From an uncultured Verrucomicrobiae bacterium (lineage in GTDB: Bacteria; Verrucomicrobiota; Verrucomicrobiia; Chthoniobacterales; JAFAMB01): a stretch of DNA of 64,000 bases. A program made the translations under genes and the position numbers. The DNA is taken from positions 128,001 through 192,000 of the forward strand of contig CAWEXO010000001.1 of assembly GCA_963813025.1 (NCBI GenBank), written 5' to 3'. This document shows positions 31,385 through 54,681 of the stretch, piece by piece. Within the stretch, counting starts at the first letter, position 1. The number at the start of each line of letters is the position of its first letter. Under the pieces are notes generated by a model that saw only the letters and a program-made list of their open reading frames with translations, had not been told where the DNA came from and did not search any database.

Positions 31385-32011
31385 TATCCGCGTCCGAAAA
31401 CACTGGGTATTTCTTGGGGACGAACGATGGCGGCAATGGTCAGGTGGATGCCTCGTCAATGGAACCGCGGATTACATGTAGTGGTGCTGAACGGCGGTAT
31501 CGGTCGAACGAATTCTCCGAGCCAACCCGTCGATGTTGCGGTAAGAATGGCCGCTTCGGCGTCCGGCTTTGCCACCATTATGCCCGTCCCCGCGATCCTC
31601 GGGCTGGCCACCACCAAAGAAGCGCTAGAGAGAGATCCGACGATCTCTACGGTGCTCGCCGCGGCCGCCGAGACGCCCATTGCTTGCTTTACCGTGGGCG
31701 CTCTTTCCCATCATTCGGTTCATGTCGAGTCCGGCAATCTGACGAAAGCCGAAATAGCACAGCTTCGCCGGAAAGGGGCGGTCGGCGATATCTTGGGTCG
31801 ATTTATCAATCGCGAGGGCGACATTGCCGACGAAGAGATTGATGCCCGGACAATTGGCCTCGCCCCAAAAGCATTACGGGACAAGGAACGCTCAATCTGT
31901 GTGGCGGGCGGAAAAACTAAGCACGCTGCAGTCCGTGCCGGCTTAATCGCCCGCTATTACAACGTGTTGGTAACCGATGAACAAACGGCTAAGTTTCTTT
32001 TGAAAGAGTGA
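31385..32011 (+). pseudogene. SorC/DeoR-type regulator, sugar-binding domain only (HTH missing)
   Basis: LGISWGRTM, GAVGDILGRF, VAGGKTK, VLVTDE; no N-terminal HTH and no room for one. Confidence 0.75.
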
Positions 32012-32067
32012 ATGGCGAGCCGAGCTGATCGGCGGACGAGTTCTTTCCTTAACGGAGCCTGGATCTG

Positions 32068-33069: not shown

Positions 33070-33073
33070 TGGT

Positions 33074-37899: not shown

Positions 37900-38560
37900 G
37901 AGTCGCGGGAGTTCAAGGAGTTCAAGGAGTTCAAGGAAGTTCAGGGAAGTTCAGGGAAGTTTGGAGGATATCGCCTCTGTCGGTAGGGCGATCCGCCTTT
38001 GGCGGATGAGCCCGGCGGCGCCGGGCGAAGACTCGTTCGAGCCGGGACTTTGTGGGTCGCCGCACACCCAAGACGACTCCGCCTTTGCCAAGGCTATGCC
38101 GGACACGTCAAACAAGTTCTCGCTGGGCCGCCGCCCCGGCTCAAATAAAGAGAATGTCTCGCAAACATCCGCTGATCCACGACCGGTAGGGCGAAAATTC
38201 ATTCGAGCGCCAGCGAGAACTTGTTTGAGCCGTCTTGGAGGGGTGGCACACCCCTTATGTCCGGCTTAAACGAGTCCTCGCTAAGGCTTGGATAAATTTT
38301 CGCCCTACCGGACCAGGGCCGAGGCCATGTTGCGAGACACTCTCTAAATTTTCGCCCTACCGATCTTGTCCGGTCGCAAACAAAATATCAAAGCGCACCG
38401 GCGTGCTCCTAAGTTCGACAGATCCTTCCAGCCATTGAGCGATGATCCTGCCTCGTCAGTTCTTCTCTGTAGCATCCGTGCCGAATCATCTTCGCGATCT
38501 TGCGCGCTTCTGTGTCATTCTTCTGCGATTTGCAATCGGGCATCGGCGATCGGTCATCGG
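37900..38560. repeat. Full composite nested repeat (REP doublet containing a MITE containing a REP doublet)
   Basis: (GGAGTTCAA)n and (GGAAGTTCAG)n lead-in; outer CGGTAGGGCG...; MITE 38150-38344 with TAAA duplication; inner REP doublet 38183-38311. Confidence 0.9.
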
Positions 38561-39604
38561 CTCAGCCGGATACTCGATGAGCACCTGCATAACCTCAAGC
38601 GACCCTTGGTCGAGCAAGCGATAGGCGCGCTCCGCTTCCGCAAGCGGAACGAGACGGGTAATCATTCGGCGGAGGTCCGAAGCAAACAAGGTAAGATATT
38701 CTTGCGCGATTCTCGAACGCCGCTCGATCGACCACAGCGGACCTAACATTGGATTAACAAAGCCGACCTGTGAAGAAATAATGCGCGGTCGATTGTGATG
38801 AAATTCTCCGGCAAGGCTCAACGTTTCAAACGTGCCGCCATACCAGGACATGGCGATCACTGTTCCGTTAAAGCCGGTTGTTCGGATTGCTTCGTTGAGA
38901 GCCGGAGCGGCTCCGGAAACCTCAATGACCGCATCGGCACCGCGCCCATCGGTCAGTTCCCTCACCGTCTCCGCCACTTTATCTGAAGGCAGCAGCAAAT
39001 GGTTAGCGCCCCCGTCACGCGCAAGTTGTCGTCGCAATTCGATTCCATCGACGCCAATGATCCGGCGCGCTCCGCCAAGTTTAAGGAGGCGGACGACGAT
39101 TTGACCGATCACGCCAAGCCCCATCACGACGACATCAGCGCCAAGCGGCAGATTGGCATCCAGAACACCATTATAAGCCGTGTTGAGATTCGCCAGAAAA
39201 ACGCCGGTCTCTTCCTCCTCGAGGTCGCCCAGGCTGACCACCCGATCTTCGGCAACGACGGCATGGCCGCCAGGCGGCGCATAGGCGAAAACAAGATCGC
39301 CCACTTTACGCACCGCAACCGAGCAACCAATGTCAGAGATCCGTCCGACCATGGCATAGCCATAGCGGGCCGGCCATTTCCAATCAGATCCTTGCTCCTT
39401 TGTGAACAAACGCGTGGAAGGATCCATGCGCTCACGCCACTGTGGCGCCAATCCTCGAAAGACGTTGAGCTCCGTTCCAGCGCTGATTCCAGAGACAATG
39501 GCTTCTAACAAGACTTCGTTCGGCTTCAGTGCGGGGAGCGGTTCACTGATTACGGCGAGCTGGCGCGGTCCAGTAAAGTAGAGTGATTGTGTCATTAAAC
39601 TCAT
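38486..39604 (-). CDS. MDR-family (Zn-ADH-like) dehydrogenase
   Basis: SGISAGTE, YGYAMVG, GLGVIG, GRGADAVIEVSG, FHHNR; the last ~25 aa read into the repeat. Confidence 0.85.
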   Translation of the reverse strand: MSLMTQSLYFTGPRQLAVISEPLPALKPNEVLLEAIVSGISAGTELNVFRGLAPQWRERMDPSTRLFTKEQGSDWKWPARYGYAMVGRISDIGCSVAVRKVGDLVFAYAPPGGHAVVAEDRVVSLGDLEEEETGVFLANLNTAYNGVLDANLPLGADVVVMGLGVIGQIVVRLLKLGGARRIIGVDGIELRRQLARDGGANHLLLPSDKVAETVRELTDGRGADAVIEVSGAAPALNEAIRTTGFNGTVIAMSWYGGTFETLSLAGEFHHNRPRIISSQVGFVNPMLGPLWSIERRSRIAQEYLTLFASDLRRMITRLVPLAEAERAYRLLDQGSLEVMQVLIEYPAEPMTDRRCPIANRRRMTQKRARSRR

Positions 39605-40990: not shown

Positions 40991-41097
40991 ATGCTCCGCA
41001 TGCAGTAAGTTCTGTTTCCGCGCAAATTAAGTCCTTAAAAAGACCGCTCCAAGAAGCACGTCAGACTTTTCACTCCAGCCAAAGTGGAAGAAAGAAG

Positions 41098-41690
41098 TCA
41101 GGCCGGGATAAAGCGCTCTTTTTGAAACTCGGCAAACAGGCGCAGCAACATTTCCTCGGTGTCAACGCATTCGTGGAAACCGAACCGACACGCCTTCGTA
41201 GTGTCGGAGATGACATCGTACTCGAGATTAAAAATAGCTTCTCCGAAGGCCAGGAAACAGCTTCCTGATAGGAGTAATTCCGCAAACCATACTTCTTGAC
41301 CATACGGTTCCAGATCGGCTCCTTGTCAGACACGAATGATGCCAACGGCAGGTGTTGAAAAGAACCGCAGGGAAGTTTAAAAAAATCTGCCAATCGCGGC
41401 CAAAGGTTCTCCCAACGGTTGATGTCCCCATTGGTGATATTAAATGCTTGGCCGTCGCACGCTTCGTTCTGACCAGCCCACACCATTGCTTTGGCCAAAA
41501 GATTTGCATCGGTTATCTCCATCAAAGCTTGGTAAGCCGCCGTCGAACCAGGGAACCGCAGCGCGAGGCCAAGTTCTTTGCACAGCGCCGCGTAGACCGC
41601 GATCACGGTCGCCATGTTCATCGGATTACCGACGGCAAACCCGCGGATGCAGGAGGGACGGAGGGCCGTCCAGGACCACGCGGTCCTTGT
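41098..41690 (-). pseudogene. PRISE-like SDR, C-terminal half (second copy), cut at its 5' side by a composite repeat
   Basis: WSWTALRP...GNPMN...AVYAALCKELG.LRFPG...GQAFNITNGD; the 3' ~270 bp closely match 36180-36455. Confidence 0.8.
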
Positions 41691-41692
41691 GC

Positions 41693-42315
41693 AAGGAAGT
41701 TCAGGGAAGTTTGGGAGGTATCGCCTCTGTCGGGAGGGCGATCCGCCTTGAGCGGACGAGCCCGGCGGCGCCGGGCGAAGACTCGTTCGAGCCGGGACTT
41801 TGTGGGTCGCCGCACACCCAAGACACGTGAAACAAGTTCTCGCTGGGGCCGCCGCTCGGCTCAAATAAAGAGAATGTCTCGCAACATCCGCTGACCCACG
41901 ACCGGTAGGGCGAAAATTCATTCGAGCGCCAGCGAGAACTTGTTTGAGCCGTCTTGGAGGGGTGGCACACCCCTTATGTCCGGCTCAAACGAGTCCTCGC
42001 TAAGGCTCGGACAAATTTCGCCCTACCGGACCAGGGCCGAGGCACATGTTGCGAGACACTCTCTTTATTTTCACCCTACCGATCTTGTCCGGTCGCAAAC
42101 AAAATATCAAAGCGCACCGGCGTGCTCCTAAGTTCGACAGATCCTTCCAGCCAGTGAGCGATGATCCTGCCTCGTCAGTTCTTCTCTGTAGCATCCGTGC
42201 TGAATCATCTTCGCGATCTTTGCGCGCTTCTGTGTCATTCTTCTGCGATCTGCGATTTGCGATCAGCCATCGGCTATCGGCTATCGGCACAGCCGCATAT
42301 GCTATTTGCGATTGC
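41693..42315. repeat. Full composite nested repeat, a close direct copy of 37930-38560
   Basis: Direct sequence comparison. Confidence 0.9.
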
Positions 42316-42339: not shown

Positions 42340-43161
42340 TCAATCGGCTACAACGATCTCAACCCCGGATTCGTTCAAGGCGGCAACAAGGCGCGGCGAG
42401 GGCATAGCATCCGTGACGAGAACATCGATCTGGTCAAGAGAGACTACGTGCGCGAAGACTGAGCGATCCAGCTTTGTAGCATCAGCCAACACGATCACGC
42501 GCCGCGCGGCTTCTATCATCGCGGCCATCATCGAAGCCTCTTCGAATATTGTTGTGGATAATCCGCGCTCTGATATCCCGCCGACTCCAAGAACGGCCGT
42601 GTCGGCACTGATAGGTCCTGCTTGCGGAAAGCCCACCGTGCCGATGGTGATCTGGGCGTGCACAAGGACCTGGCCACCCAGTAGATAGACCGCCCGGGCG
42701 GTCTCCGGCGTCAATGCCGACGCTATCCCGAGATCATTCGTAACGATCGTGAGATTTCTGCGGGAACCCAACTGACCGACAAAAGCCCGGGTGGTCGATC
42801 CGCCATAGATGAGTAATGTCTCGCCATCGGCGATCAAGCTCGACGTCTGGCGTGCGATGCGACTCTTCTCCGCTGCCTGTGAGACCAAGCGCTGTGTGAC
42901 CGGTACATCCGGCACGATCACGTCGTCCAAGGGAACCGCGCCGCCGTGAGTCCGCTTAAGTAAGCCTCGCTCGGCCAGGTAGTCCAAGTCACGTCGGATA
43001 GTGTCCAGCGAGACGGCAAACTGAGCCGCGCTTTCCGCAACGGTGATGGCGCCGCGTATTTTTGCAGTTTTTAGCAGTTCGCCGCGACGTTGTGCAGGTA
43101 TTGCATAGTCGGGGAGAAGGCCTTGATCCCCTTGGGCTTCTGATTTCGAATCAATGTCCAT
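42340..43161 (-). CDS. DeoR/GlpR family transcriptional regulator
   Basis: VSLDTIRRDLDYL...RTHGGA; EKSRIA; VLADATK. Confidence 0.92.
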   Translation of the reverse strand: MDIDSKSEAQGDQGLLPDYAIPAQRRGELLKTAKIRGAITVAESAAQFAVSLDTIRRDLDYLAERGLLKRTHGGAVPLDDVIVPDVPVTQRLVSQAAEKSRIARQTSSLIADGETLLIYGGSTTRAFVGQLGSRRNLTIVTNDLGIASALTPETARAVYLLGGQVLVHAQITIGTVGFPQAGPISADTAVLGVGGISERGLSTTIFEEASMMAAMIEAARRVIVLADATKLDRSVFAHVVSLDQIDVLVTDAMPSPRLVAALNESGVEIVVAD

Positions 43162-43311
43162 GCCGGTTTCTCGTCTTTTTGCGTGGCAACCTATCGAAAA
43201 GGCGTGTTCATCCAACCGTTGCTTGACATTGCGTTTAATGCTGATATCCGATAATACACTTAAAAACAAGAGGATTCATGCAGGCAGGATGCTGGATCTA
43301 GGAGAAAGTAA

Positions 43312-44643
43312 ATGCGTAAGAAACTGATCCAAGGTGCCGACGCTCAGGACAGTACTGATATGCGGCGTCGTGATTTCATTCGGGTTTCCGGGGGCGCGGT
43401 CGTAACCGCGACCATGGGCGCCCTTGGTATGCCGTCCCAGCTCTTCGCCCAGGGCAACCGAACGGAGATCACGTTCGCCAGTGCTCGGTTTTTTTCAACT
43501 GACACAATGCAGCAGGTGATCGAATCCTACAATAAGTCGCAGAATTCCGTACACGTCAGCTATATCGAACTGCCGCCGCCGAGTAGCTCCACAGAAGTTC
43601 ATCAGCAACTGGTCCAACAACTTGCCCGCAAAAACGGCTCACCTGATGTTTTTACACAGGATATTATTTGGATTGCCGAATTCGCACAGGCTGGCTGGAC
43701 ACTACCGCTCGACCACTATTTTGGTGCCGACGAGATGAAGGCTTTCTTTCCAGGTATTGTCCAGGGCTGCACTTGGAAAGGTCAGCTCGTTGGGATGCCC
43801 TGGTTCCTGGACTCCGGCAAGCTCTATTATCGAACCGACGTGTTACAGAAGCTCGGTGCCGGCGTTCCAGAGACCTGGGATCAGCTGATCGAGACGGCCC
43901 AGAAAGGTATGAGCGGAGACGTGCGTTTTGGTTTTATCTGGCAAGCCAAACAAGCCGAGATCCTGACTTGCACTCTGGTCTCATTCGTTGGGTCTAATGG
44001 CGGTTCTATTCTCGGTTCGGACGGAAAAACGGTAAAGATTGCCGAGCCCGAGGCCAAAGCCGCAGTGCAACTGATGCATGACACTATTCACAAGTACAAG
44101 GTCACGCCGTCTGACGTACTAACCTGGGACGAGGAACCATCGCGCAGGCCATTCACCGCCGGGCAATCGGTTTTTCTTAGAAACTGGAGCTATGTATGGT
44201 CGATCGCTCAGGACAAGACGCAGTCGGATGTTGTCGGCAAGGTTGAGGTCGCGCCACTCCCTCATTTTCCTGGTAAGAAGAGCGCGGCGTGCCTCGGCGG
44301 TTATCAGTATGGTGTTAACGCCTCGACGAAAAACAAGGAAGCGGCGATCGACTTCCTGCGCTGGCTATCCACTCCCGCGACCCAGTTGCACTTCGCGACG
44401 ACGGAGGGATTTGTGCCGACGCGTCTGGCCGTTTTTGATGAGCCAGAACTCGCGAAGACTCAGCCCTTTATCCAGAAGCTAAAGACCGTCTCCCTCGGCG
44501 CGATACCACGTCCGGTCACCCCGAAATACCCGCAGGTCACCCTTGTGCTCCAGTCAGAGGTCTCACGCGCCCTGGTCAGCGGTGACGTTGATGGCGCACT
44601 GAACAGAGCCAAGACGCAAATCCAAAGGATCGTCGGGGCATAA
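43312..44643 (+). CDS. Sugar ABC transporter substrate-binding protein with a Tat signal
   Basis: MRRRDFIR; DIIWIAEFA, YYRTD, FLRNWSY, PRPVTPKYPQV. Confidence 0.9.
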   Translation: MRKKLIQGADAQDSTDMRRRDFIRVSGGAVVTATMGALGMPSQLFAQGNRTEITFASARFFSTDTMQQVIESYNKSQNSVHVSYIELPPPSSSTEVHQQLVQQLARKNGSPDVFTQDIIWIAEFAQAGWTLPLDHYFGADEMKAFFPGIVQGCTWKGQLVGMPWFLDSGKLYYRTDVLQKLGAGVPETWDQLIETAQKGMSGDVRFGFIWQAKQAEILTCTLVSFVGSNGGSILGSDGKTVKIAEPEAKAAVQLMHDTIHKYKVTPSDVLTWDEEPSRRPFTAGQSVFLRNWSYVWSIAQDKTQSDVVGKVEVAPLPHFPGKKSAACLGGYQYGVNASTKNKEAAIDFLRWLSTPATQLHFATTEGFVPTRLAVFDEPELAKTQPFIQKLKTVSLGAIPRPVTPKYPQVTLVLQSEVSRALVSGDVDGALNRAKTQIQRIVGA

Positions 44644-44696
44644 TAAGTGGTCTTCCGGGTAGCTGTCGGACCTCATAGCAGGATCTGCGGCTACAC

Positions 44697-45644
44697 ATGC
44701 GGCTTATGGCGATCGCTAAAACACTGAGTCAGCAAGCGAGTCTGCGTCCGCCGTACGGTCGGTCCAAGGTTTGGGCGCCCGCGCCGGCACTATTGCTGGC
44801 GCCGGCGTTAGCGGCCATCGCAGCGATCTCGATTTATCCGGTGGTTCTTGGTCTCTGGCTCTCGCTCCGAGACACCACGCTATCATCTCCAACGGATTCA
44901 TTTGTCGGCCTGGCGAATTTCCAACAGCTTCTCTCGGATGGCCAGTTCTGGAACGCATGGGTACATACGATGGAATTTATGAGTGCGTCGACGCTGCTGG
45001 AAACTTTGATCGGATTGTTAATTGCGCTAAATCTGACGGAACGATTTCTGGGCCGCGGACTTGTCCGAGCAGCGATGTTAGTACCATGGGCGATTCCCAC
45101 GGTGGTAACCTCAAAGATGTTCGGCTGGTTGTTCGACGGACAGAACGGCGTCGTTAATTATCTTCTGCGAAGTGCCGGCTTCATCCAGCACAACATCAGT
45201 TGGTATGGATCGCCTGATCTTGCCTTAGGGACGATTGTCATTGCCGATGTCTGGAAGACTACTCCTTTTATGGCCCTGCTTCTTCTAGCCGGGCTGCAGA
45301 CTATTCCCCGTTCTCTTTCCGAAGCTGCCTTAATTGACGGCGCTAAGCCCTGGCAACGTTTCTGGTGCGTCAGGCTGCCATTACTGGCCCCCACCCTCCT
45401 GATCGCTGCGATGTTTCGCGCCTTGGATGCTTTCCGGATCTTCGATCTTGTCTACGTCTTGACTGGCGGCGGCCCGGCGGACTCTACCGAGGTCCTTTCA
45501 ACGTTAACCTACAAAAATCTCTTCTCGGCGCTCCAGCTCGGATATGGATCCGCACTCTCCACTGCGATGTTCATCACCGAAATTTTCATCGCTCTGGGCT
45601 TCGGGATCTTCATTTTGCGCAAACTGAAGGAGGTCGGCCAATGA
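44697..45644 (+). CDS. Sugar ABC transporter permease
   Basis: PWAIPTVV, DVWKTTPF, EAALIDGA, TGGGP. Confidence 0.92.
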   Translation: MRLMAIAKTLSQQASLRPPYGRSKVWAPAPALLLAPALAAIAAISIYPVVLGLWLSLRDTTLSSPTDSFVGLANFQQLLSDGQFWNAWVHTMEFMSASTLLETLIGLLIALNLTERFLGRGLVRAAMLVPWAIPTVVTSKMFGWLFDGQNGVVNYLLRSAGFIQHNISWYGSPDLALGTIVIADVWKTTPFMALLLLAGLQTIPRSLSEAALIDGAKPWQRFWCVRLPLLAPTLLIAAMFRALDAFRIFDLVYVLTGGGPADSTEVLSTLTYKNLFSALQLGYGSALSTAMFITEIFIALGFGIFILRKLKEVGQ

Positions 45645-46513
45645 AGGCTGCACCGGTCACTGAACAGATATCACCGCGAGGCTTTTCCTTGTTTCCTTGG
45701 AACCGAGTCGCGATCTACGCCTGTGCCCTGTTTGTTGTGTGTTGGTCAGTCGGACCATTCCTGTGGCAGATGTCTACCTCGCTACAGTTAGACAAGCGGC
45801 TAGTTAGCGGTAATCCGACGCTGATACCTGATCCGATAACCTTCGATCATTTTATTAACATCTTCGTGGGCAAAAACCTTCACCGGTACCTTCTTAATTC
45901 AGTAATTGTGGCCGGTACAACGACGTTTTTTTGTTTACTCTTCGGAGCCGTCGGAGCGTTTGCGCTCGCGCGACTCGATATCCGTGGCCGTTTTGGGATT
46001 CTGGGCTTCATTCTGGCGGTCTCGATGTTCCCGCAGATTGCGATCGTCGCTCCGCTCTACGTGTTAGCTTCGCAGTTCGGCTGGTTGGACACGTACAGAA
46101 TTCTGATTGTTGTTTACCTTGCGCTAGGCTTGCCATTGGTGATCTGGGTACTCTTCGGCTATTTCCGGACGATTCCACAGTCCATCGACGAGGCCGCACG
46201 AATCGACGGCGCAAGACCCCTGGCCATCTTTTTCTTGATCACACTCCCGATGTCTCTCCCCGGTGTCGTCACGACTGGGCTACTCTCCTTCATCGCTGCC
46301 TGGAATGAATTTATGTTCGCGCTAGCGTTCACCTCGGATATCAACCATCAAACCGTCCCCGTGGGCATCGCGAACTTTACGGACGTTCACTATATTCCGT
46401 GGGGTGATATCGCGGCGGCTTCTGTGGTTGTAACCCTTCCGCTTGTGGTGCTGGTACTCGTCTTCGAACGTAACATCATTGCTGGCCTCACAGGAGGAGC
46501 GATCAAGGAATGA
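45641..46513 (+). CDS. Carbohydrate ABC transporter permease
   Basis: ATG 45641 overlaps the upstream stop; EAARIDGA, FIAAWNEF. Confidence 0.92.
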   Translation: MKAAPVTEQISPRGFSLFPWNRVAIYACALFVVCWSVGPFLWQMSTSLQLDKRLVSGNPTLIPDPITFDHFINIFVGKNLHRYLLNSVIVAGTTTFFCLLFGAVGAFALARLDIRGRFGILGFILAVSMFPQIAIVAPLYVLASQFGWLDTYRILIVVYLALGLPLVIWVLFGYFRTIPQSIDEAARIDGARPLAIFFLITLPMSLPGVVTTGLLSFIAAWNEFMFALAFTSDINHQTVPVGIANFTDVHYIPWGDIAAASVVVTLPLVVLVLVFERNIIAGLTGGAIKE

Positions 46514-47814
46514 CTACCGGCCGATGGCAAGAGGTTTATTCTGATCTTATCAAGCGATTGCCCGATTTTGTCAGCGGTGCCCGGCTGGCGATGTGCGGCT
46601 TAGCCACGTGCGTCGATGCTTACGTGCGCTTAGATGCGGCAGAGAAACTGCTGAACGCGAAGAAAGGGACACCGCAAGCTGAGCTCGCGAAGGAACTGCT
46701 TCGAAGGGCAGCGGCCGGCATCGGCGGGGAGTTTCGGATGAATTGGCCGGCCGGAGGGACCTGGGTCGAAGAAAACCTTCAGGTCTCAAATTGGGGTATC
46801 GGTGGAACAGGAGCTCAAGCAGCACAAACGCTCGCTACACTCGGGGCACCGGCGCTGATGAGCTTGGAAGACCGGGGCGCGCGCCAGCTATCGGTTACTC
46901 ATCCGGACATCCAGGTAGGATCCAGTTCCGGTCTGGTTCGGTGCAGGGATCTTCCCGTCCTCAAAACCCAGAAACCCGCCCACTATATTTTCGAATTTAC
47001 CGAAGGAGTCAGGGTTGGATCTATCATTCCGAAACGTTCGACGCGAATAATCGTTCTATTCGCCCCTGATTCACTCGACAGAGATCCTGACTTCGCTCGT
47101 GAGAGTATCGCGGCCGCTCCTGGAGCGGGCGCGGGAATTTTGTGTGGCTTTAACGGAGTCGCTGACCGGGAATTGGATACGGCGGTCGGCGAGGCGCTGA
47201 GCCTGGCTAAGGCTTGGAGCGATCAAGGCCTCAAAACTATTCATTTGGAGCTAGGCGGCTATTCGCGCGACAACAACAGGGACGCCGTCTTGAACGGTCT
47301 CATTCGGGTTATCACCTCCCTTGGAATGAGCGAATCAGAGTTTCGCGGCTTGTTTGGGGAATCCCAAGATCCAGTCGCGGGAGCTCACGAACTCGCCGAA
47401 AGGTCCGGGCTCTCTCGCTTGTGCGTCCATGCTGACACTTGGGCAATGGCGATAACCCGGAACGATCCAGAACGCGAGCTCGAAGCGCTGCTGATGGGTT
47501 GTCTCCTGGCATCCACCCGCGCCGCGGTTGGGCGGGTCACGGTGCCACAGGGACTGCCGGACGGTTCACGATTCTTCGAGCCTCCTCTTCCGGTCTCGAA
47601 ACGCTGTGACGGTTGGTGTGCCGTCTGCTGTCCGGTGCCCTATCTCGCGACTCCGGTCGCCACGATAGGCCTTGGCGATACGTTCCTCGCCGGCACTTTG
47701 CTTGTTCTCAGCGCGGAGTTCGCGATGCCCCGGCCACGGCAGACGCATCGGCTTCCCGAAACGATAAGACGATTGACTAAATATTATGAATACACGTTTA
47801 AAAAACCACATTAG
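46510..47814 (+). CDS. ADP-dependent glucokinase/phosphofructokinase family sugar kinase
   Basis: CVDAY, GIGGE, GGTGAQAA, HYIFEF, IHLELG, SLGMSESE, CVHAD, TIGLGDTF (catalytic Asp). Confidence 0.8.
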   Translation: MTTGRWQEVYSDLIKRLPDFVSGARLAMCGLATCVDAYVRLDAAEKLLNAKKGTPQAELAKELLRRAAAGIGGEFRMNWPAGGTWVEENLQVSNWGIGGTGAQAAQTLATLGAPALMSLEDRGARQLSVTHPDIQVGSSSGLVRCRDLPVLKTQKPAHYIFEFTEGVRVGSIIPKRSTRIIVLFAPDSLDRDPDFARESIAAAPGAGAGILCGFNGVADRELDTAVGEALSLAKAWSDQGLKTIHLELGGYSRDNNRDAVLNGLIRVITSLGMSESEFRGLFGESQDPVAGAHELAERSGLSRLCVHADTWAMAITRNDPERELEALLMGCLLASTRAAVGRVTVPQGLPDGSRFFEPPLPVSKRCDGWCAVCCPVPYLATPVATIGLGDTFLAGTLLVLSAEFAMPRPRQTHRLPETIRRLTKYYEYTFKKPH

Positions 47815-48808
47815 CACGCGCGTTCCTGGCATTGATCCCGGGAAAATGCGCAGCTTTCAACGGGTTATTTCTCATGACGGATTCTTTCTGATCTGCGCGC
47901 TCGACCATCTTTCGGATTTCCAGGAGCTGCTGGATCCTGATCCAAAAACTGTCGATTACGCCCGCACAATGGATGCAAAGCTCGATCTAATTCGCGCCAT
48001 TTCCGGTGAGGTCAGCGCCTTCTTGCTCGATCCCCGCTTTGCCTTAGCGCAAGCCATTGCCTCGAGGGCCCTACCTGCGTCGATGGGCTTTATGTCATCC
48101 ATTGAGGACGAAGGTTACCACGGTTCTGAGTCCCGGATGACCAAGCTGCGACTGGGTTGGGGTACCCGCAAAATTAAACTGATCGGCGCCGACGTGTGTA
48201 AGCTGCTCTGGTTTTTCCGACCAGACAGTGGGACTGCCGACTTCCAGCGCGGCGTTCTAAAGCGCCTCGTGGCCGAGTGCGCGGCTCTTTCCCTGCCGCT
48301 CGTCGTCGAGCCGATCTGGTATTCGCTACCAGACGAACAACCGACGAGTACGGCATGGAAGGTCCGGCGCGTCGAGGGCATCATTGAATCCGCTCACGAA
48401 GCTAGTCGTTTCGGCGTTGACATGCTCAAAGTCGAGTTTCCTGGTGACGTCAGTTCCGAGGAAAGTCAAGACGAGGCTCTCGACGCGTGCCAACGCCTGG
48501 AAAAGGGCGTAAATGTGCCGTGGGTGATCCTCTCGGCAGGCGTTTCCTACGATAGCTTTAAGAAGCAAGTCGAGATTTCCTGCAAGGCGGGTGCATCCGG
48601 ATATCTCGCGGGGCGCTCGATTTGGCGCGATGCTGTGTCGACGCACGATCCCGGTGCGAAAAAGGGCGCGATTGCCGACGCGGTTGCGCGGCTTTCCGAG
48701 TTGAATGCGATTACTCGCGCTCACGGCAGGCCCTACCTCCCGGCATTCAGCGGAACGGCTCTCCAGGAGGCTTTGCCGGAATTCTGGTATGAAGGCTGGC
48801 ATCCCTGA
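47786..48808 (+). CDS. LacD/YihT-type class I ketose-phosphate aldolase (tagatose-1,6-bisphosphate aldolase family)
   Basis: CALDH, FLLDP, KLL, VVEP, DMLKVEFP, WVILSAGV, GYLAGRSIW. Confidence 0.85.
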   Translation: MNTRLKNHISTRVPGIDPGKMRSFQRVISHDGFFLICALDHLSDFQELLDPDPKTVDYARTMDAKLDLIRAISGEVSAFLLDPRFALAQAIASRALPASMGFMSSIEDEGYHGSESRMTKLRLGWGTRKIKLIGADVCKLLWFFRPDSGTADFQRGVLKRLVAECAALSLPLVVEPIWYSLPDEQPTSTAWKVRRVEGIIESAHEASRFGVDMLKVEFPGDVSSEESQDEALDACQRLEKGVNVPWVILSAGVSYDSFKKQVEISCKAGASGYLAGRSIWRDAVSTHDPGAKKGAIADAVARLSELNAITRAHGRPYLPAFSGTALQEALPEFWYEGWHP

Positions 48809-48816
48809 GAAATGTC

Positions 48817-49674
48817 ATGCCGCAAAAATTGAACTTTCTGAGCCAGATGACCGGGTCATTTGGCCTGTCCGCAGCCGGCAACCCGACCGTCGCCATGATT
48901 GAGGCGGCCTTTAATCATCATGGACTCGACTGGCGTTATATGAATTGTGAGGTTAAACCGGAAAAGCTGGGCGACGCTGTTCGCGGCGCTCGGGCAATGG
49001 GGTGGGCCGGTTTTAACTGCTCTCTGCCACACAAGGTTTCGGTCATCGAGCATCTCGACGGCCTCGGCGAGTCCGCAGCGATCATGCGCGCGGTTAATTG
49101 CGCAGTCCGACACGGGGACACGTTCATCGGCGAGAACACTGATGGAAAAGGGTTTATGATGTCTCTGCAAGGTATCGTAGATCCGCGCGGCAAGAATATT
49201 GTCCTATTCGGTGCGGGTGGAGCGGCCCGAGCGTTGGCGGTCGAACTCGCTTTGGCCGGCGCGCACTCGATATCTGTGGTGAACCGCAGTCGAGAGCGCG
49301 GCGCGGAATTGATCAGGGTCATAAATGACAAGACGCCTGCTAAGGGAGAGCTGGTTGTTTGGGACAAGACATATCAGGTGCGTCCGGATGCAGCCATCGT
49401 GATTAACGCCACCTCGATCGGTTTGTATCCAGATGTCGATGGTCGACTCGATATTGATACCGAATCACTCAAACCGGAGATGGTGGTTGCGGATGTCGTT
49501 CCGAGCCCACCCCGCACCAATCTCATTAAGGATGCCGAAGCGCGTGGCTGCACGATCGTCGACGGCCTTGGTATGCTGGTAAATCAAGGTGTCATCAGCA
49601 TAAAGTATTGGACCGGATTCGATGTTGACGCAGCGGTTATGAGGGGAAAGCTCGAGCATATTTATCGCTTATAG
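48817..49674 (+). CDS. Shikimate dehydrogenase (AroE/YdiB) family oxidoreductase, atypical
   Basis: NCSLPHK, AVN, ENTDGKG, GAGGAARA, VNRS, INATSIG, GLGMLVNQG. Confidence 0.85.
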   Translation: MPQKLNFLSQMTGSFGLSAAGNPTVAMIEAAFNHHGLDWRYMNCEVKPEKLGDAVRGARAMGWAGFNCSLPHKVSVIEHLDGLGESAAIMRAVNCAVRHGDTFIGENTDGKGFMMSLQGIVDPRGKNIVLFGAGGAARALAVELALAGAHSISVVNRSRERGAELIRVINDKTPAKGELVVWDKTYQVRPDAAIVINATSIGLYPDVDGRLDIDTESLKPEMVVADVVPSPPRTNLIKDAEARGCTIVDGLGMLVNQGVISIKYWTGFDVDAAVMRGKLEHIYRL

Positions 49675-49696: not shown

Positions 49697-50280
49697 AGAA
49701 GTTCAGGGAAGTTCAGGGAAGTTCAGGGAAGTTTGAGCGGTATCGCCTCTGTCGGTAGGGCGAGAATTTATTCGAGCCCGGCGGAGCCGGGCGAAGACTC
49801 GTTCGAGCCGGAACTTTGCTGGTCGCCACACCCAAGGGCTGAAACAGGTTCTCGCCGGGCCGCCGCCCCGGCTCGAATAAGAGATTGTCTCGCAACATGG
49901 CCTTGGCCTGCTTCGGTAGGGCGAAAATTCATTCGAGCGTCAGCGAGAACTTGTTTGAGCCGTCTTGGAGGAGGTGGCACACCCTTATGTCCGGCTGAAA
50001 CGAGTCCTCGCTAAGGCTCGGATAAATTTTCGCCCTACCGGACCAGGGCCGAGGCCATGTTGCGAGACTCTCTAAATTGTCGCCCTACCGATCCTGTCCG
50101 GCCGCAAACAAAATATCAAATCGCACCGGCGTGCTCCTAAGTCCGACATACCCTTTCAGCTTGTGAGAGCTGATCCTGGCTGGCCCGTGGGTTCTTCTCT
50201 ATAGCGATCCGTGGTGAACCGTCTTGGCGATCTTTGCGCGCTTCTGTGTGAATCTTCTTCGATTTGCGATCTGCTCAGCC
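49697..50280. repeat. Composite nested repeat copy
   Basis: (GAAGTTCAGG)x3 lead-in, outer REP, GAGATTGTCTCGCAA...TTGCGAGACTCTC MITE, inner REP doublet, CTAAGTCCGACA. Confidence 0.9.
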
Positions 50281-50282
50281 GT

Positions 50283-50725
50283 CTACCCCCATTCCGGAAC
50301 CTGCTGATCGTAATGTATTCGGAGCCGTTGCAGCTCCACTCCCTCAAAGACGTGATCGAGTTCTGGGTCGCTCGAAACGGTGGGCAGCGAAACCTGTGCC
50401 TCTGTCACAAACCGTTTCCTGATTTCCCGGTTACCACCTGAGAAATAGCCGTCGCTCCACCAGTTCAAGATCCTCTCCCTAGCCTGACCTAACCGCGCCG
50501 CCGATGGCAGCTTTGCCGATTTTTCATGTTGATTGATCGACCGATGCGCCGGCATCAGGTTCCAGAGATCGTCACATGGCCAGGCTGTCCATGGAAAACA
50601 ATGATCGACATCCATCAAGTCGGGCTTAAGGGCTTTACCGGACCAGACGCAGACAAGCGGCTGCCTCACCATGATCTGCAGCGCAATCTCTCGGGCCAAA
50701 CCCGACATCACGCTCCGGATCCGAG
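50283..50725 (-). pseudogene. HNH endonuclease C-terminal fragment
   Basis: CVWSGKAL, DVDHCFPW, DLWNLMPA, INQHEKSAKLPS; the 5' part is missing where the ECF gene begins. Confidence 0.75.
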
Positions 50726-50789: not shown

Positions 50790-51557
50790 TTGGAACGCGA
50801 CCATGGTCCGCCAGCGGAGGCGGCGAGCTTTCACACCACGCGCTGGACGATCGTTATGAAGGCGGCGCAAAGTCAGGCGCAAGGGGGGCAGTCCGCCTTA
50901 GCTCAGTTGTGCCGCACTTATTGGTATCCACTCTACATGTTCGCTCGCCGCCGCGGGCACTCCCCGGATGACGCCCAGGACTTGACCCAAGGTTTTTTCC
51001 TGCACCTGCTGGAACAACGGGCGCTGGCGGGAGTTGACCGGCTCAAAGGCAAGTTCCGGTCGTTTTTGCTCGCCTCTTTCCAGAACCATCTCTCGGATGA
51101 GGCCGATCGCACGCGCCGTCTTAAAAGAGGAGGAGACAAAGAATTCGTTGAGCTGAATACGGAAGAGGCCGAAGAACGCTATCGACTGGAGCCGGTCGAG
51201 TGTTTAACAGCAGAGAAAATGTTCGATGCTCGGTGGGCAATGACGCTCCTGGCCGAAGCTTTGGCCAAACTGCGCCAGGAGTATGCCACCGAGGGAAAAA
51301 CGTCCACGTTCGCATCGTTGAAAGTTTTCCTGGACCCAATTAACAGCAGAGCTCCACCCTCCTATGAAGAGGTCGCGAATCGGCTTCAGGTCAGCACGGG
51401 CGCGGTCAAAACACTTATCCACCGGTTGCGAAAGCGATACACCGCTCTGTTGCGCGAGGAGGTCGGCCGTACGGTGTCAGATCCGGCAGAAATCGACGAG
51501 GAAATCCATGCGCTCTGCGAAGCCTTAATCGCATCCGAAGGACGGTTAGGTCCATGA
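50790..51557 (+). CDS. ECF-type RNA polymerase sigma factor (kinase-associated type)
   Basis: FHTTRWTIV, LCRTYWYPLY.FARRRG, DAQDLTQGFF, KGKFRSFL, AVKTLIHRLRKRY. Confidence 0.9.
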   Translation: MERDHGPPAEAASFHTTRWTIVMKAAQSQAQGGQSALAQLCRTYWYPLYMFARRRGHSPDDAQDLTQGFFLHLLEQRALAGVDRLKGKFRSFLLASFQNHLSDEADRTRRLKRGGDKEFVELNTEEAEERYRLEPVECLTAEKMFDARWAMTLLAEALAKLRQEYATEGKTSTFASLKVFLDPINSRAPPSYEEVANRLQVSTGAVKTLIHRLRKRYTALLREEVGRTVSDPAEIDEEIHALCEALIASEGRLGP

Positions 51558-53761
51558 AAACGGAGCTTCGACGCACCTGCCCAAGCTGTGGCAATGAGTT
51601 TTCCGAAGCGATGGAATTCTGTCCGGTTTGCATACTACGCGGAGCTGCACGGGGAGAATCCGCAGCGGCCCCGGCGGTGAATCCGACAGGTGAGCCAGAA
51701 CAAGGCTCCGAGGAGGGAGAGCCGGCGTCCCCGGTCAACCGGTTTGAGCATTATGAACTGATGTTGGATGAAGAGGGTAGACCGATCGAGCTGGGGCGTG
51801 GCTCGATGGGCGTCACGTACAAGGCGCTTGATGTCGATCTGCGGTGCCCGGTGACATTGAAGGTCATCAACGAAAAATATCTCGGTGACGAGTCAGCGCG
51901 GCTTCGTTTCTTGCGCGAGGCGCGCGCAGCAGCCAGCGTACGTCACCCGAATGTTGCCTCGGTCTTCCATCTGGGAAGAACCCGAAAGAGCTATTTCTAT
52001 GCGATGGAGTTTGTAGAGGGGGAAACGCTCGCGAGTCTCATGAACCGTACCGGCCGGATTGAGGTAAAGCTGGCGCTCGAAATTGCTACTCAGGTTGCAG
52101 CTGGTTTGGCTGCGGTGCACAAGCAGAGACTCGTGCACCGAGATATCAAAGCAAGCAACATCATGGTGAATATGGCGGATGGAGACGCTGTGACCGCAAA
52201 GATCGTCGACCTGGGGCTGGCCAAGACGGTGAACGAACCAGATTCCGAAGCGGCTATTTCTATACCCGGATGGTTTGCGGGGACACCAGAGTTTGCTAGT
52301 CCCGAGCAATTCGCGGGCGTCGGTGTTGATATTCGCTCGGATCTTTACTCGCTGGGTGCGATGCTTTGGGTGGCGGTCACCGGCCACCGTCTGTTCAGGG
52401 GCTCCCCTGCTGAGGTGATGTATCAGCATCAGCATGCACCGTTACCCCTCAAACAACTCAAAGACGTTCCGCAGCCGGTCGTCACTCTACTTGAGGTGCT
52501 TTTAGAGAAAGATCCGGCGCGGCGCTTCCAGAGCCCGACCGAACTCCTGAAGGCGATGCCGACGATAACGGGCGCTATCGACGCGGGGCGTACAATCTCT
52601 CGTGGGAGCTTGCGGCCAGCCGCTACCCGACCGGGCGAGTTCTGCGATACGCTGTCTGGGATCGCGACAGCGAAATTGGAGTCCATGGCCCCTGCTCCCA
52701 AAGCGCCAGAGTTGGACCAATCAACTCCGCCGCGCCTGCAATCGTCACCAGAGGTGCTTTCACAGGCAGCGCCGATGCGAAAAGAACTCCATTCTCGTCC
52801 GTTGCCTACACGGCGGCACAATCTGTTCCTATTCGCGGCGGCGCTAGGCGCCATCATGCTGGTTACCGGCTTGGTTTGGTTTCTCGGACCGAAATTCCGG
52901 AATCCAACGGTGCCGGCTCTTCGCGGAACGATTTCACCAAAGCCGACGGCGGTCTTCGTTTTTCATTCCCCGCCCACGCCCGGTAAACCATGGTCGAACA
53001 GCCTCGGAATGCGCTTCGTGCCGCTGGGTGAAATCCACCTCGCTGTGTGGCAGACCCGGGTCCGAGATTTCGAGGTATTCGTTCACGCAACCGGCTACGA
53101 TGCCGTCGGCGGCATGTCGTCTGCCATTACGCGGAACGGATTTAAGCTCAGCACGATGAGCTGGATGGCGCCGGGTTTCCAGCAAACACCGGAGCAACCC
53201 GTCGTCGGCGTCAGCTGGGAAGACGCGAATCAATTCTGTGCATGGCTGACGAAAAAGGAACGAAGCGAAGGGGCGCTCGCAACCTTTCAAAGCTATCGGC
53301 TACCAACCGATCGCGAATGGAGCCGGGCTGTCGGGCTTGAGCACGAGCAGGGCGCTACGCCAGCAGATCGCAGCGGAAAGATTAAGAGCATCTATCCTTG
53401 GGGTACAGTATTTCCGCCGCCGAACGACGTAGCAAACTATGCGGGCGAGGAATCGCGCGAAGGCGCACCGGATACATGGATGGTCATTGCAGGTTTTCAC
53501 GATGCTTTCCCCCGGACAGCTCCGGTTTCGGCTTTCAAGGCAAACGCGAAAGGTCTCTACTGCTTGGGAGGGAACGTCTGGGAATGGTGTATGGATACGT
53601 TCGAAAACGGAATGGACTGGCGCACACTCCGCGGTGGCTCGTGGGCAACATCGAGTCCCGAAGAGTTACTCTCCTCCCATCGCCGGGGCTACGGACCATT
53701 GTTCCGTTCCGATGACATCGGGTTCCGCTGCGTTATCGCCATAGATGGAGCGCACGAATGA
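51554..53761 (+). CDS. Ser/Thr protein kinase with an N-terminal Zn-ribbon, TM helix and C-terminal FGE-sulfatase (SUMF1) domain
   Basis: CPSC/CPVC; HRDIKASN, DLGLA, GTPEFASPEQ; PVVGVSWEDA, RLPTDREW, GNVWEW, RGGSW, GFRC. Confidence 0.92.
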   Translation: MKTELRRTCPSCGNEFSEAMEFCPVCILRGAARGESAAAPAVNPTGEPEQGSEEGEPASPVNRFEHYELMLDEEGRPIELGRGSMGVTYKALDVDLRCPVTLKVINEKYLGDESARLRFLREARAAASVRHPNVASVFHLGRTRKSYFYAMEFVEGETLASLMNRTGRIEVKLALEIATQVAAGLAAVHKQRLVHRDIKASNIMVNMADGDAVTAKIVDLGLAKTVNEPDSEAAISIPGWFAGTPEFASPEQFAGVGVDIRSDLYSLGAMLWVAVTGHRLFRGSPAEVMYQHQHAPLPLKQLKDVPQPVVTLLEVLLEKDPARRFQSPTELLKAMPTITGAIDAGRTISRGSLRPAATRPGEFCDTLSGIATAKLESMAPAPKAPELDQSTPPRLQSSPEVLSQAAPMRKELHSRPLPTRRHNLFLFAAALGAIMLVTGLVWFLGPKFRNPTVPALRGTISPKPTAVFVFHSPPTPGKPWSNSLGMRFVPLGEIHLAVWQTRVRDFEVFVHATGYDAVGGMSSAITRNGFKLSTMSWMAPGFQQTPEQPVVGVSWEDANQFCAWLTKKERSEGALATFQSYRLPTDREWSRAVGLEHEQGATPADRSGKIKSIYPWGTVFPPPNDVANYAGEESREGAPDTWMVIAGFHDAFPRTAPVSAFKANAKGLYCLGGNVWEWCMDTFENGMDWRTLRGGSWATSSPEELLSSHRRGYGPLFRSDDIGFRCVIAIDGAHE

Positions 53762-54681
53762 AATTGCTTAAATTCAATCTTATTTTCATTCCTTTACTCG
53801 CGCTTTGCTTGGGCGTGGTCGGCTACATTGCGAGAAACTTATTGCTTGAGGACACGCGCGAACACGTCATCCAGAACGCGCGGATAATCATGGAGACGAT
53901 GCTGTCGAGCCGCACCTATACGACGAAACAGGTTGCCCCTCTGCTTCAACAAAAGAATTTCAAGCTGCAAACCGCAATTTCGGAATTTCGAAAGACGATC
54001 GAGGAGATGCCGAAGGTTTTAGATCCGGCAGCTCCGAAAGACATTCGGGGTAACGCAAAGAAAAGCTATATTCTCGGTCAGCAGCGCGCCCTGGACGTTC
54101 AGCAGCAGTTTCTGGAGTCGGTAAAAGGCAGACCGGAAGAGCTCCTCGACACCGAGTTCCATCCTCAGTCGGTTCCCGCGTTCGCCGCGACGGAGATCTT
54201 CTCTTATCTGCGTGAAAAATTTCCTGACTATTTCTATAAGGAAGCTACTCTGAATCCGAGCAACCCGCGAAACCGCGCCACGGATTGGGAAAGCGACGTG
54301 ATCAACCAATTCCGCACCCACTTGGAACAGACCGAATTCATCAATACGCGCGAATCTGCCACCGGGACAGCGCTTGTCCTGGCGCGACCGATCAAAGTAA
54401 ACAATGTCAGCTGTCTGGAGTGCCACAGCACACCAGATAAGGCGCCGGCAGAGATGATCAAGCTTTATGGCACAGCCAACGGCTTTGGTTGGAAGCTGGA
54501 CGACATTATCGGTGCCCAAATCGTTTCTGTGCCGGTCTCGGTAGCCGTGCGCATTGCCGAAGACGCGTTCCGCGTGATCGTCATGTGGCTTGCTGGTGCG
54601 TTCGGCGGTATCATTCTTGTCGCTAACATCGCTGTCGCGATCGTGGCGCGTCCGCCGCCGAAAGCTCAGAACGGGAGTTAG
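53758..54681 (+). CDS. DUF3365 (Tll0287-like) membrane-anchored c-type heme protein
   Basis: Two TM segments; YKEATLNPSNPRNRA, CLECH, YGTANGFGWK. Confidence 0.88.
   Translation: MKLLKFNLIFIPLLALCLGVVGYIARNLLLEDTREHVIQNARIIMETMLSSRTYTTKQVAPLLQQKNFKLQTAISEFRKTIEEMPKVLDPAAPKDIRGNAKKSYILGQQRALDVQQQFLESVKGRPEELLDTEFHPQSVPAFAATEIFSYLREKFPDYFYKEATLNPSNPRNRATDWESDVINQFRTHLEQTEFINTRESATGTALVLARPIKVNNVSCLECHSTPDKAPAEMIKLYGTANGFGWKLDDIIGAQIVSVPVSVAVRIAEDAFRVIVMWLAGAFGGIILVANIAVAIVARPPPKAQNGS

Follow-up and report, generated by a model that had tools for sequence, protein, structure and literature searches.

Sugar kinases of the ADP-dependent family are best known from archaea and animals. Ketose-1-phosphate routes, in turn, include the liver and haloarchaeal ketohexokinases with fructose-1-phosphate (F1P) aldolase, FucK/FucA, and RhaB/RhaD. 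The available text of PMC7948494 describes only three specificities for ADP-dependent kinases (glucokinase [GK], phosphofructokinase [PFK], and bifunctional) and mentions bacterial members without a function. In the LacC-LacD and YihV-YihT pathways (PMC8006165, available text), as in the locus analyzed here, a ribokinase-superfamily kinase is followed by a DHAP-releasing Schiff-base aldolase of PF01791. However, the kinase is an ATP-dependent PfkB enzyme in those pathways and an ADP-family enzyme in this locus, which also lacks PTS, isomerase, and sulfoquinovosidase genes and has ABC import, the imported sugar presumably being unphosphorylated.

The window, a 64,000-nucleotide stretch of DNA from an uncultured Verrucomicrobiae bacterium, contains a cluster of seven intact open reading frames (ORFs). 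A gene for a DeoR/GlpR-family regulator (42340..43161, minus strand; 273 amino acids from the ATG at 43161; PF00455 and PF08220) diverges from six plus-strand genes encoding a twin-arginine CUT1 sugar-binding protein (SBP; 43312..44643; PF01547), a MalF/UgpA-type permease (44697..45644; PF00528; relatives 74 to 86% identical), a MalG-type permease (45641..46513; PF00528; relatives 72 to 85% identical), an ADP-dependent-family sugar kinase (46510..47814; PF04587, 69.4 bits against a cutoff of 27), a class I (Schiff-base) aldolase of the LacD/YihT superfamily (47786..48808; PF01791; NCBIfam PRK12858, 219 bits against a cutoff of 184), and an AroE-like member of the shikimate dehydrogenase family of the 5-ketofructose reductase (KFR) type (48817..49674; PF08501, PF01488, and PF18317). 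The junctions from the SBP to the AroE-like gene are, in order, a 53-nucleotide gap, two 4-nucleotide overlaps, a 29-nucleotide overlap, and an 8-nucleotide gap. These ORFs and profile matches confirmed the tightly packed operon with a divergent DeoR gene that a first-pass annotation had described. Since the order permease-kinase-aldolase was the same in 13 of 13 fetched loci of relatives, and since DeoR held the same position in 10 of them (the missing cases being contig ends), the linkage is not due to chance; across 88 loci, the window included, the DeoR cluster was found in 75. No ABC ATPase gene was found in the cluster, and MalK-like genes sit on other contigs.

The kinase is a true member of the ADP_PFK_GK family that falls in a separate bacterial clade. 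Its assignment to the ADP-dependent family in the first-pass annotation was borne out by the PF04587 profile, which matched residues 28 to 398 above its cutoff, and by the fold. In a Foldseek search with the AlphaFold model (pLDDT 93.7), ADP-GK/PFK structures matched at an E value of 5e-28 with TM scores of 0.70 to 0.77, while others reached 4e-9 at best; by VIA, the model aligned with Thermococcus litoralis ADP-GK over 401 residues (Z 41.1, rmsd 2.3), whereas other ribokinases scored Z values of ≤22.5. Although it is just 17 to 20% identical to the archaeal and animal enzymes (PF04587; PDB 1UA4, 4B8S, 6XIO, and 5CCF), the window kinase shares their large-lid fold (Z 32 to 41), GxGD and HxE motifs, ADP-contacting Arg, sugar-binding Asp/Glu/His, and domain-closure Glu (E162), the full set of retained residues being D36, E74, G98-G99, H158, E162, R176, R179, H245-x-E247, E277, and G387-x-G389-D390. 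GxGD (G387-L-G-D390) and HxE (H245-L-E247) are present in 83 of 83 locus kinases, and R179, the counterpart of the ADP beta-phosphate-contacting R206 of AncMsPFK, is present in 82. Within the N/DxxE Mg-ADP motif, Glu277 is invariant and the first position is Ser (105 Ser and 15 Asn; n = 120), the window kinase reading S-x-x-E. In contrast to the archaeal and animal enzymes, members of the bacterial clade carry Ala/Ser and Thr at the Asn32 and Gln116 positions and an invariant Asp309 in place of the lid tyrosine that partners TlGK R202, and they are encoded in accessory catabolic operons with an aldolase, not in glycolysis. ADP is the predicted phosphoryl donor.

The sugar site is of the glucokinase type. 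The glucose-binding residues D36, E74, and H158 are present in 120 of 120 close homologues, and the GK-type D36/E90/His positions of PMC7948494 are retained. The specific ADP-glucokinase equivalogs were nevertheless rejected (PRK14039, 62 against 387 bits; PRK14038, 28 against 554; Asn32 and the GGQ Gln are A32 and T100), as was the ADP-phosphofructokinase type, specific or bifunctional, given that K179/N181/R212 of AncMsPFK correspond to P156/H158/A185 and that TIGR02045 scored 33.7 against a cutoff of 408. The mapped pocket positions A32, C34, P156, L183, and A185 of the window kinase carry no basic residue. An Arg beside the sugar site, R183, is shared by 82 of the 83 locus kinases and lost only in the window's own subclade (13 Leu and 1 Val of 120).

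The aldolase likewise proved to be of the class I LacD/YihT type proposed earlier, with PRK12858 above its cutoff and the Schiff-base Lys retained. It keeps D40, K139, E175, K215 (Schiff base), S250, and G276-R277; of these, D40, E175, K215, S250, and R277 do not vary across the 15 orthologues aligned. Its PDB matches were 8TNF, YihT, and LacD, and its DHAP/P1 site (S250 and R277) resembles YihT S226/R253 (PMC8006165, available text). The distal-anion loop reads D-H-L-S-D where D-Q-R-x-A stands in the LacD/YihT type. Two specific identities were rejected: LacD tagatose-bisphosphate aldolase (TIGR01232, 70 against 432 bits; D-H-L rather than D-Q-R) and YihT sulfofructose-1-phosphate aldolase (the Arg is present, but the Ala26 position is Asp44, and no sulfoquinovose [SQ] isomerase, SQase, or SLA reductase was found among the neighbors scanned). 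Because 38 of 42 other genomes of the family carry a class II fructose-bisphosphate (FBP) aldolase-family gene, the operon aldolase is generally dispensable for housekeeping glycolysis. No class II Fba was detectable in the source genome (G000) or in G001.

Loci with the DeoR-ABC-kinase-aldolase core are found repeatedly in soil Chthoniobacterales and in Alphaproteobacteria; the kinase is encoded in 25 of 43 genomes of the soil verrucomicrobial family and in cultured strains of Inquilinus, Aureimonas, Kaistia, Mesorhizobium, and Agrobacterium. A class I aldolase lies within 10 kb of the kinase in 84 of 87 loci, which are not independent samples (21 LacD-type, 59 of an unnamed family, and 4 with both), and one further locus has a class II aldolase. 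The modeled structure of the unnamed partner is likewise a class I aldolase barrel. Since unrelated aldolases occupy the same slot, the kinase product appears to be the aldolase substrate, and in one genome kinase and aldolase read as a single frame. The LacD-type core normally includes one kinase, and neither an isomerase nor PfkA was found among 45 neighbor proteins scanned. In the other subtype, the SBP is of the sorbitol type and is joined by a polyol SDR (galactitol-dehydrogenase-like), so a scheme in which a polyol is oxidized first fits that subtype, not the window. FGGY kinases in six of its loci, and PfkB plus GatZ near several Aureimonas loci, fit a two-kinase bisphosphate route. A characterized example of the operon was not found in the literature searched, in agreement with its earlier description as new.

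KFR, the subject of a 2021 J Bacteriol paper, reportedly carries, in its substrate loop, an Asn where AroE has Ser, together with a Lys/Asp dyad. The AroE-like protein matched PDB 7COK, a 5-ketofructose reductase, at an E value of 8e-95 (320 bits; ~55% identity, 153 of 278 residues counted from the alignment), compared with 3e-49 (171 bits) for the best AroE. Its N22, K73, and D109 align with N21, K72, and D108 of 7COK, and the two share the GNPT Asn, NCSLPHK Lys, NTDG Asp, and NR NADP(H) motif. An automated label would be AroE, given a marginal pass of TIGR00507 (204.8 against 200.2). Orthology to the housekeeping AroE was rejected, as the family has a separate class of 30 to 37% identity in nearly all genomes and a class of 63 to 82% identity in 12 of 42 others; in the 80% complete source genome, this gene is the sole PF08501 match. 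The available text of PMC7954740 describes the Tatumella enzyme (TM-KFR) as reducing only 5-ketofructose, to D-fructose, with NADPH, with no activity on 5-ketogluconate. The window gene differs in being part of an operon with a kinase and an aldolase, in a soil verrucomicrobium, and its KFR activity is predicted.

The first-pass annotation had cast this gene as catalyzing an initial oxidation, which the comparisons do not support: none of the 13 relatives' loci fetched first has it (two of these end at the aldolase), only 2 of the 87 wider kinase loci do, and its closest solved relative is a reductase. Kinase and aldolase co-occur across phyla. Since the AroE-like gene is confined to one subtype and resembles KFR, its product is an accessory enzyme, probably a reductive one. 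KFR-type genes stand beside the aldolase in 3 family genomes and in 6 of 10 close loci from metagenomes. Homologues of KFR are also found outside the operon, an observation that weighs against the pathway proposed below.

From gene content, conservation, family membership, folds, and residue patterns, we infer the donor, the C1 regiochemistry, the sugar, and the reductase role of a pathway to which we assign a probability of about 50%. The ABC importer would bring in a free neutral ketohexose of the D-fructose/L-sorbose/5-keto-D-fructose group, the kinase would phosphorylate it once, at the C1 hydroxyl and probably with ADP, and the aldolase would split the ketose-1-phosphate into DHAP and glyceraldehyde. 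As an add-on, the KFR-type enzyme would salvage co-imported 5-ketofructose to D-fructose with NADPH and keep an aldolase-inhibiting phosphate from forming; according to the title of one study, liver fructokinase phosphorylates 5-ketofructose and the resulting ester inhibits liver aldolase. DeoR, likely a repressor with a sugar phosphate as its signal, would hold the operon off until that phosphate is present. The reductase product favors D-fructose as the substrate, whereas the glucose-type kinase pocket favors L-sorbose, whose pyranose is isosteric with glucose, C1 replacing C6. The predicted single C1 phosphorylation and split to DHAP and a free aldehyde match the known ketose-1-phosphate routes; the kinase family and predicted donor differ, and the cluster has no dedicated aldehyde-processing gene. 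Several observations count against this ketohexose pathway: searches of the 80% complete source genome found neither Dak1 nor a DUF4147 glycerate kinase that would account for the fate of the glyceraldehyde, and no other FBP aldolase; the solved proteins most similar to the SBP are alpha-glucoside binders; a GH13 glucosidase adjoins DeoR in 2 of the 13 relatives' loci; FGGY or PfkB kinases lie near some loci; the N/DxxE motif of the window kinase reads S-x-x-E; and R183 of the clade, Leu in the window, could hold an anion, for example a 6-phosphate or a carboxylate.

The SBP itself belongs to the trehalose/maltose-binding (TMBP/MalE3) clade, with PDB matches to 1EU8 (E value, 3e-80) and 6DTQ (5e-79) and only 1e-46 to SmoF. 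An RRRDF twin-arginine motif, read from the sequence, precedes its hydrophobic stretch, and the twin Arg is found in 23 of 23 orthologues, across which the binding-site motifs are near-invariant. This orthologous group occurs only in loci with a LacD-type aldolase and in none where the unnamed aldolase stands alone.

An unlikely variant leaves the route unchanged and substitutes a different ketose, also neutral (D-tagatose, L-psicose, a deoxy-ketose, a pentulose, or a heptulose), the KFR-like substrate being different or its link to the pathway loose. Tagatose is what LacD-family aldolases are annotated with, the kinase-aldolase link is independent of KFR, and position 158 differs between subtypes (His in 22 of 22 versus Ile in 40 of 54), which shows that the kinase family takes more than one sugar. 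The position of KFR-type genes directly 3' of the aldolase, in the window as elsewhere, and the strict 5-ketofructose specificity of the characterized KFR argue against it.

We consider it improbable that the kinase acts second, in the manner of a PFK, on fructose-, tagatose-, or sorbose-6-phosphate made by a first kinase encoded elsewhere, with the LacD-type enzyme splitting the 1,6-bisphosphate into DHAP and glyceraldehyde-3-phosphate. Such a route would follow canonical LacC-LacD logic; R183 lies near the AncMsPFK S210/R212 position, FGGY or PfkB kinases adjoin some loci, and the source genome yielded 11 PfkB matches but neither a triokinase nor another FBP aldolase, at 80% completeness. 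Nevertheless, the K179/N181/R212 triad is missing and the glucose-binding Glu retained, position 183 of the window kinase is Leu, the D-Q-R arginine is missing from the aldolase, in which an Asp stands two residues further on, and most LacD-type loci lack a second kinase.

That the substrate ketose is anionic (5-keto-D-gluconate, fructuronate/tagaturonate, or sulfofructose), as for IolC/IolJ or YihV/YihT, is decidedly improbable. The best PDB match of the aldolase is labeled DUF2090, with YihT second, the SBP N-terminal loop has a conserved Lys/Arg, SmoF is among the SBP matches, and most of the kinases have R183. However, the sulfoquinovose genes are missing from the recurrent neighbors scanned, Asp replaces YihT Ala26, the sister subtype combines R183 with a sorbitol-type SBP and polyol SDR, and TM-KFR did not reduce 5-ketogluconate (PMC7954740, available text). 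A plain ADP-glucokinase with an alpha-glucoside importer and a spare FBP aldolase would suit the complete D36/E74/H158 signature, the ADP-GKs as best structural matches, the TMBP-like SBP, the GH13 genes, and the undetectable class II Fba in G000 and G001, but is very improbable, given that aldolases do not take glucose-6-phosphate, that PGI and PFK do not travel with the module, and that an aldolase partner, though swapped among unrelated families, is nearly always present and in one genome reads in one frame with the kinase.

The operon offers a compact, clonable test of the function of the bacterial clade. If the ketohexose pathway is correct, an ADP-driven ketose-1-kinase would be a fourth specificity for ADP-dependent kinases, a substrate would be known for a large, still unnamed family of aldolases, a carbon source would be named for soil bacteria that are poorly represented in culture, and the labels "AroE," "glucokinase," and "tagatose bisphosphate aldolase," now in wide use, would be corrected. 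More tentatively, the whole clade may consist of bacterial ADP-dependent ketohexokinases, in which a repurposed glucokinase-type pocket directs phosphorylation to C1 of a ketopyranose and interchangeable aldolases set the stereochemistry; the window's LacD-type module might then be an undescribed L-sorbose/5-ketofructose route in Chthoniobacterales that are abundant in soil. In rhizobia, the sister module, with the unnamed aldolase, might likewise serve the use of an L-ketose, for example L-tagatose.

The cluster is flanked by two copies of a noncoding repeat (41689..42282, ~590 bp, on the left and 49711..50283, 85% identical to it, on the right; no strand assigned), which had no match among 12 related loci and is genome specific and outside the pathway. 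An alternative TTG start of DeoR at 43269 is probably too long, as homologues have 265 to 283 amino acids. Between DeoR and the SBP, a candidate promoter/operator (43223..43242, plus strand) has a conserved -35-like TTGACA with a TGC-N-TGC element after it. A generic sigma-70 scan made no call there; all 24 DeoR-SBP intergenic regions nonetheless contain TTGAC, in most cases with TGC/GC following it.

The seven-gene cluster proposed in the first-pass annotation was found in full. All seven genes lie close-packed in the window, with the DeoR gene (most likely starting at 43161) divergent from the genes for the substrate-binding protein (SBP; 43312-44643), two permeases, the ADP-family kinase (46510-47814), the LacD-type aldolase (47786-48808), and an AroE-like protein (48817-49674). 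The closest relatives of the window are Chthoniobacterales, and its genome is 80% complete. No ABC ATPase gene lies within the cluster; MalK-like genes occur in the same genome on other contigs. The expectation that kinase and aldolase would co-occur elsewhere was borne out in related loci and in a wider set of 87 loci, which consists of the best 80 of 194 relatives from a genome scan plus 7 of 9 plasmid records (two duplicates were skipped), contains near-duplicates, and overlaps the 13 relatives' loci fetched first. In those 13 loci the permease-kinase-aldolase order was kept without exception. Our literature search, which covered subscription journals poorly, found no characterised bacterial operon that pairs an ADP-family kinase with an aldolase, and the available portions of PMC12696579 and PMC13267639 state nothing on the bacterial function of ADP-family kinases. 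The cluster is real, conserved, and uncharacterised.

The assignment of the kinase to the ADP-dependent family held up. It scored 69.4 bits against the PF04587 profile (cut-off, 27) and far under the GK and PFK equivalog profiles, and its AlphaFold model (pLDDT 93.7) matched archaeal and mouse ADP-kinases with Z scores of 32 to 41, versus at most 22.5 for other ribokinases. When residues were mapped onto the positions defined in the available text of PMC7948494, the catalytic GxGD, the HxE motif, the Arg that contacts ADP, and the Asp, Glu, and His that bind glucose were all kept, whereas the fructose 6-phosphate (F6P) triad K179/N181/R212 was replaced by P/H/A and the N/DxxE motif of the family by SxxE. 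Given that the catalytic and glucose-site residues are retained and the F6P triad is lost, the kinase belongs to the family, has a glucokinase-like pocket, and falls outside the ADP-PFKs. From family membership we infer that ADP is its phosphoryl donor. R183, which maps to AncMsPFK S210 close to the sugar, is conserved in 82/83 locus kinases (loci from the best 80 of 194 relatives plus 7 plasmid records). Position 183 is Leu in the window kinase and its nearest homologues (13 Leu and 1 Val among 120); since these share the residue, we rejected a sequencing error. The kinase belongs to a distinct bacterial clade, with 474 homologues at 90% clustering and 79 representatives at 50% clustering (E up to 1e-30), and is found in 25 of the 43 genomes of the window's family. 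A quick kinase tree grouped the kinases by aldolase partner type and required at least 2 changes between types.

The window aldolase scored above the PRK12858 cut-off and below that of the LacD equivalog, and it retains the Schiff-base lysine and the P1 phosphate site. Where LacD, YihT, and the 8TNF structure have D-Q-R, it reads D-H-L-S-D. On the role that we presume for the D-Q-R arginine, the loss of this residue and the gain of an Asp suggest, at the level of sequence, a substrate that is uncharged at its far end. Asp44 occupies the position of YihT Ala26, which belongs to the sulfonate pocket according to the available text of PMC8006165. Sulfoglycolysis was considered because of the likeness to YihT and 8TNF, and was rejected; the cluster falls outside the YihT/sulfo-EMP group. 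The 8TNF structure, for which a literature search under '8TNF' found no paper, presumably comes from the strain of the sulfofucose study. In the portion of that study available, sulfofucose did not induce its PF01791 gene (PMC12421959). Class II fructose bisphosphate (FBP)-aldolase-family genes are present in 38/42 other family genomes; neither class II FBP aldolase nor FBP aldolase/phosphatase was found in the window's genome or its congener, both about 80% complete, and the only other class I enzyme found in the former is DeoC. Since no other FBP-type aldolase was thus found in the window's genome, the window enzyme may have a side role on FBP.

In the 87-locus set (best 80 of 194 relatives plus 7 plasmid records), the LacD-type aldolase stood alone in 21 loci, an unannotated 335-aa protein alone in 59, both in 4, all from Kaistia, and neither in 3, of which one has a class II aldolase and the other two lie on short or truncated contigs. 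Sequence searches of Pfam, NCBIfam, and the PDB with the 335-aa protein were blank; it could be placed only through a model and fold search. It models as a class I aldolase barrel (pLDDT 90), with LsrF, ADH synthase, archaeal FBP aldolase, YihT, and LacD as fold neighbours and an Atlas lead of 0.81; profile-profile comparison gave no significant match to the LacD-type alignment (E 0.87). This unnamed aldolase-fold protein, encoded at L056:8639-9655 and in 62 other loci, lacks a Pfam or NCBIfam model. It partners the ADP-family kinase in most Alphaproteobacteria of the set, and in another genome (locus L181) it stands after a PfkB kinase.

The two kinds of loci also differ in other genes. Those with the unnamed aldolase often carry a sorbitol-type SBP (PDB 4RYA, E 9e-179) and an SDR whose nearest matches are a polyol dehydrogenase and galactitol dehydrogenase, and their kinases mostly have Ile at position 158. 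LacD-type loci have a separate, highly conserved SBP of the TMBP clade, and position 158 is His in 22/22 (same 80 of 194 relatives plus 7 plasmid records). Since SBP, SDR, position-158 residue, and aldolase vary by subtype, the family looks like a set of kinase-aldolase cassettes serving more than one ketose. In the Kaistia loci L105, L106, L109, and L111, LacD-type and unnamed-aldolase modules stand in tandem around a group of two SDRs, one PF01261 isomerase/epimerase-like gene, and one Gfo/Idh/MocA gene; three of the four have two kinases within the fetched stretch. These tandem modules are a possible lead on two epimeric ketoses. At one related locus (L017:6172-8430), kinase and aldolase share a single 753-aa frame that retains the aldolase Met. 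We rejected this frame as proof of channelling; a search for longer proteins, a weak test, gave no second case, and it is therefore treated as a possible one-off stop loss.

The first-pass annotation had the AroE-like gene perform the first oxidation of the pathway. This did not stand as a general step: the gene is absent from all 13 relatives' loci fetched first (two of these contigs stop at the aldolase), and the known chemistry of its closest solved relative is a reduction. That relative is 5-ketofructose reductase (KFR; 7COK, 320 bits, about 55% identity, versus 171 bits for AroE), whose Asn and Lys/Asp dyad align in the window protein. In the available text of PMC7954740, Tatumella KFR reduces only 5-keto-D-fructose (5-KF), yielding D-fructose, and has no activity with 5-ketogluconate or sorbose. 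KFR-type genes of 63 to 82% identity occur in 12/42 other family genomes, in 3 of them directly behind the aldolase. The same placement was seen in 6/10 close metagenome loci, and four of the six look like one lineage; in the remaining four, the contig stops at most about 1 kb past the aldolase. All loci with this placement and an SBP on the contig have the window's SBP subtype (at least 78% identity), and the gene is therefore a stable accessory of one subtype with reductive known chemistry. Genome-wide co-occurrence of KFR and kinase (11/13 versus 14/30, p 0.04) is confounded by kinship and completeness and was therefore given no weight. Another uncharacterised sugar cluster (L166:1446-9385) has a second KFR-type gene close to genes for a split transketolase, an SDR, and an ABC transporter of the ribose type.

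We propose that the ABC transporter would import a free ketohexose, the kinase would add one phosphate at C1, and the aldolase would split the ketose-1-phosphate into DHAP and glyceraldehyde, while the KFR-type enzyme would return 5-KF to fructose. To a substrate from the D-fructose/L-sorbose/5-KF group we give about an even chance (roughly 0.5). L-Sorbopyranose can be superimposed on glucopyranose, its C1 taking the place of C6; this would account for the pairing of a glucokinase-type pocket with an aldolase. D-Fructose, the commoner of the two sugars, is what KFR produces, and 5-KF is the oxidation product common to both. According to the title of a work cited in PMC9253636, 5-KF phosphate inhibits liver aldolase, which would give a reason for recruiting a reductase. 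The R183 conserved in most of the kinases and the alpha-glucoside ancestry of the SBP count against this reading, and neither Dak1 nor a DUF4147 glycerate kinase for glyceraldehyde was matched in the window's genome (80% complete). Another neutral ketose taken through the same route is a distinctly weaker candidate. A bisphosphate route is improbable, an anionic ketose slightly more so, and a plain glucokinase the least probable. The proposed system would work like LacC-LacD, YihV-YihT, or the ketose-1-phosphate routes, but it falls outside LacD, YihT/sulfo-EMP, and ADP-PFK. The separate SBP of this LacD-type variant and its KFR link narrow the substrate to a few testable candidates.

In 24/24 DeoR-SBP intergenic regions there is a TTGAC element with TGC-type repeats after it; a scan for a regulon with a promoter matrix was rejected, since its control, the window's own site, ranked outside the top 20. 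A 590-bp non-coding repeat has three window copies, 85 to 89% identical, at 37939-38562, 41689-42282, and 49711-50283, and the latter two closely flank the DeoR-to-KFR cluster. Its 200-bp core is partly palindromic and is repeated genome-wide (193 blastn pieces, 19 of at least 200 bp). The repeat had no match in 12 related loci and is possibly a MITE/REP-like element. At 41073-41700, a PRISE-like Rossmann protein fragment (PF22917) has its 5' part replaced by the repeat and looks like an interrupted gene. A Zn-binding-family dehydrogenase (38486-39604) lies between repeat copies, 2.7 kb from DeoR; it had no match in 13 plus 23 related loci, and we therefore rejected it as a pathway member and regard it as probably unrelated.

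Three further groups of genes were observed in the window. At 50790-54681, an ECF-sigma-like gene (no Pfam match at 1e-5) precedes genes for a Ser/Thr kinase-FGE-sulfatase fusion and for a Tll0287-like protein. The cluster at 3319-9287 may encode a pathway for a branched-sugar acid: it holds a PGDH_C gene, which we take to be apionate-oxidoisomerase-like, along with genes for a PF01261 TIM barrel and for a Zn dehydrogenase. At 27104-35477, a separate cluster probably serves (deoxy)nucleosides; its CUT1 ABC transporter and PfkB kinase genes run divergently from those for a DeoC-like aldolase and for an aldehyde dehydrogenase.
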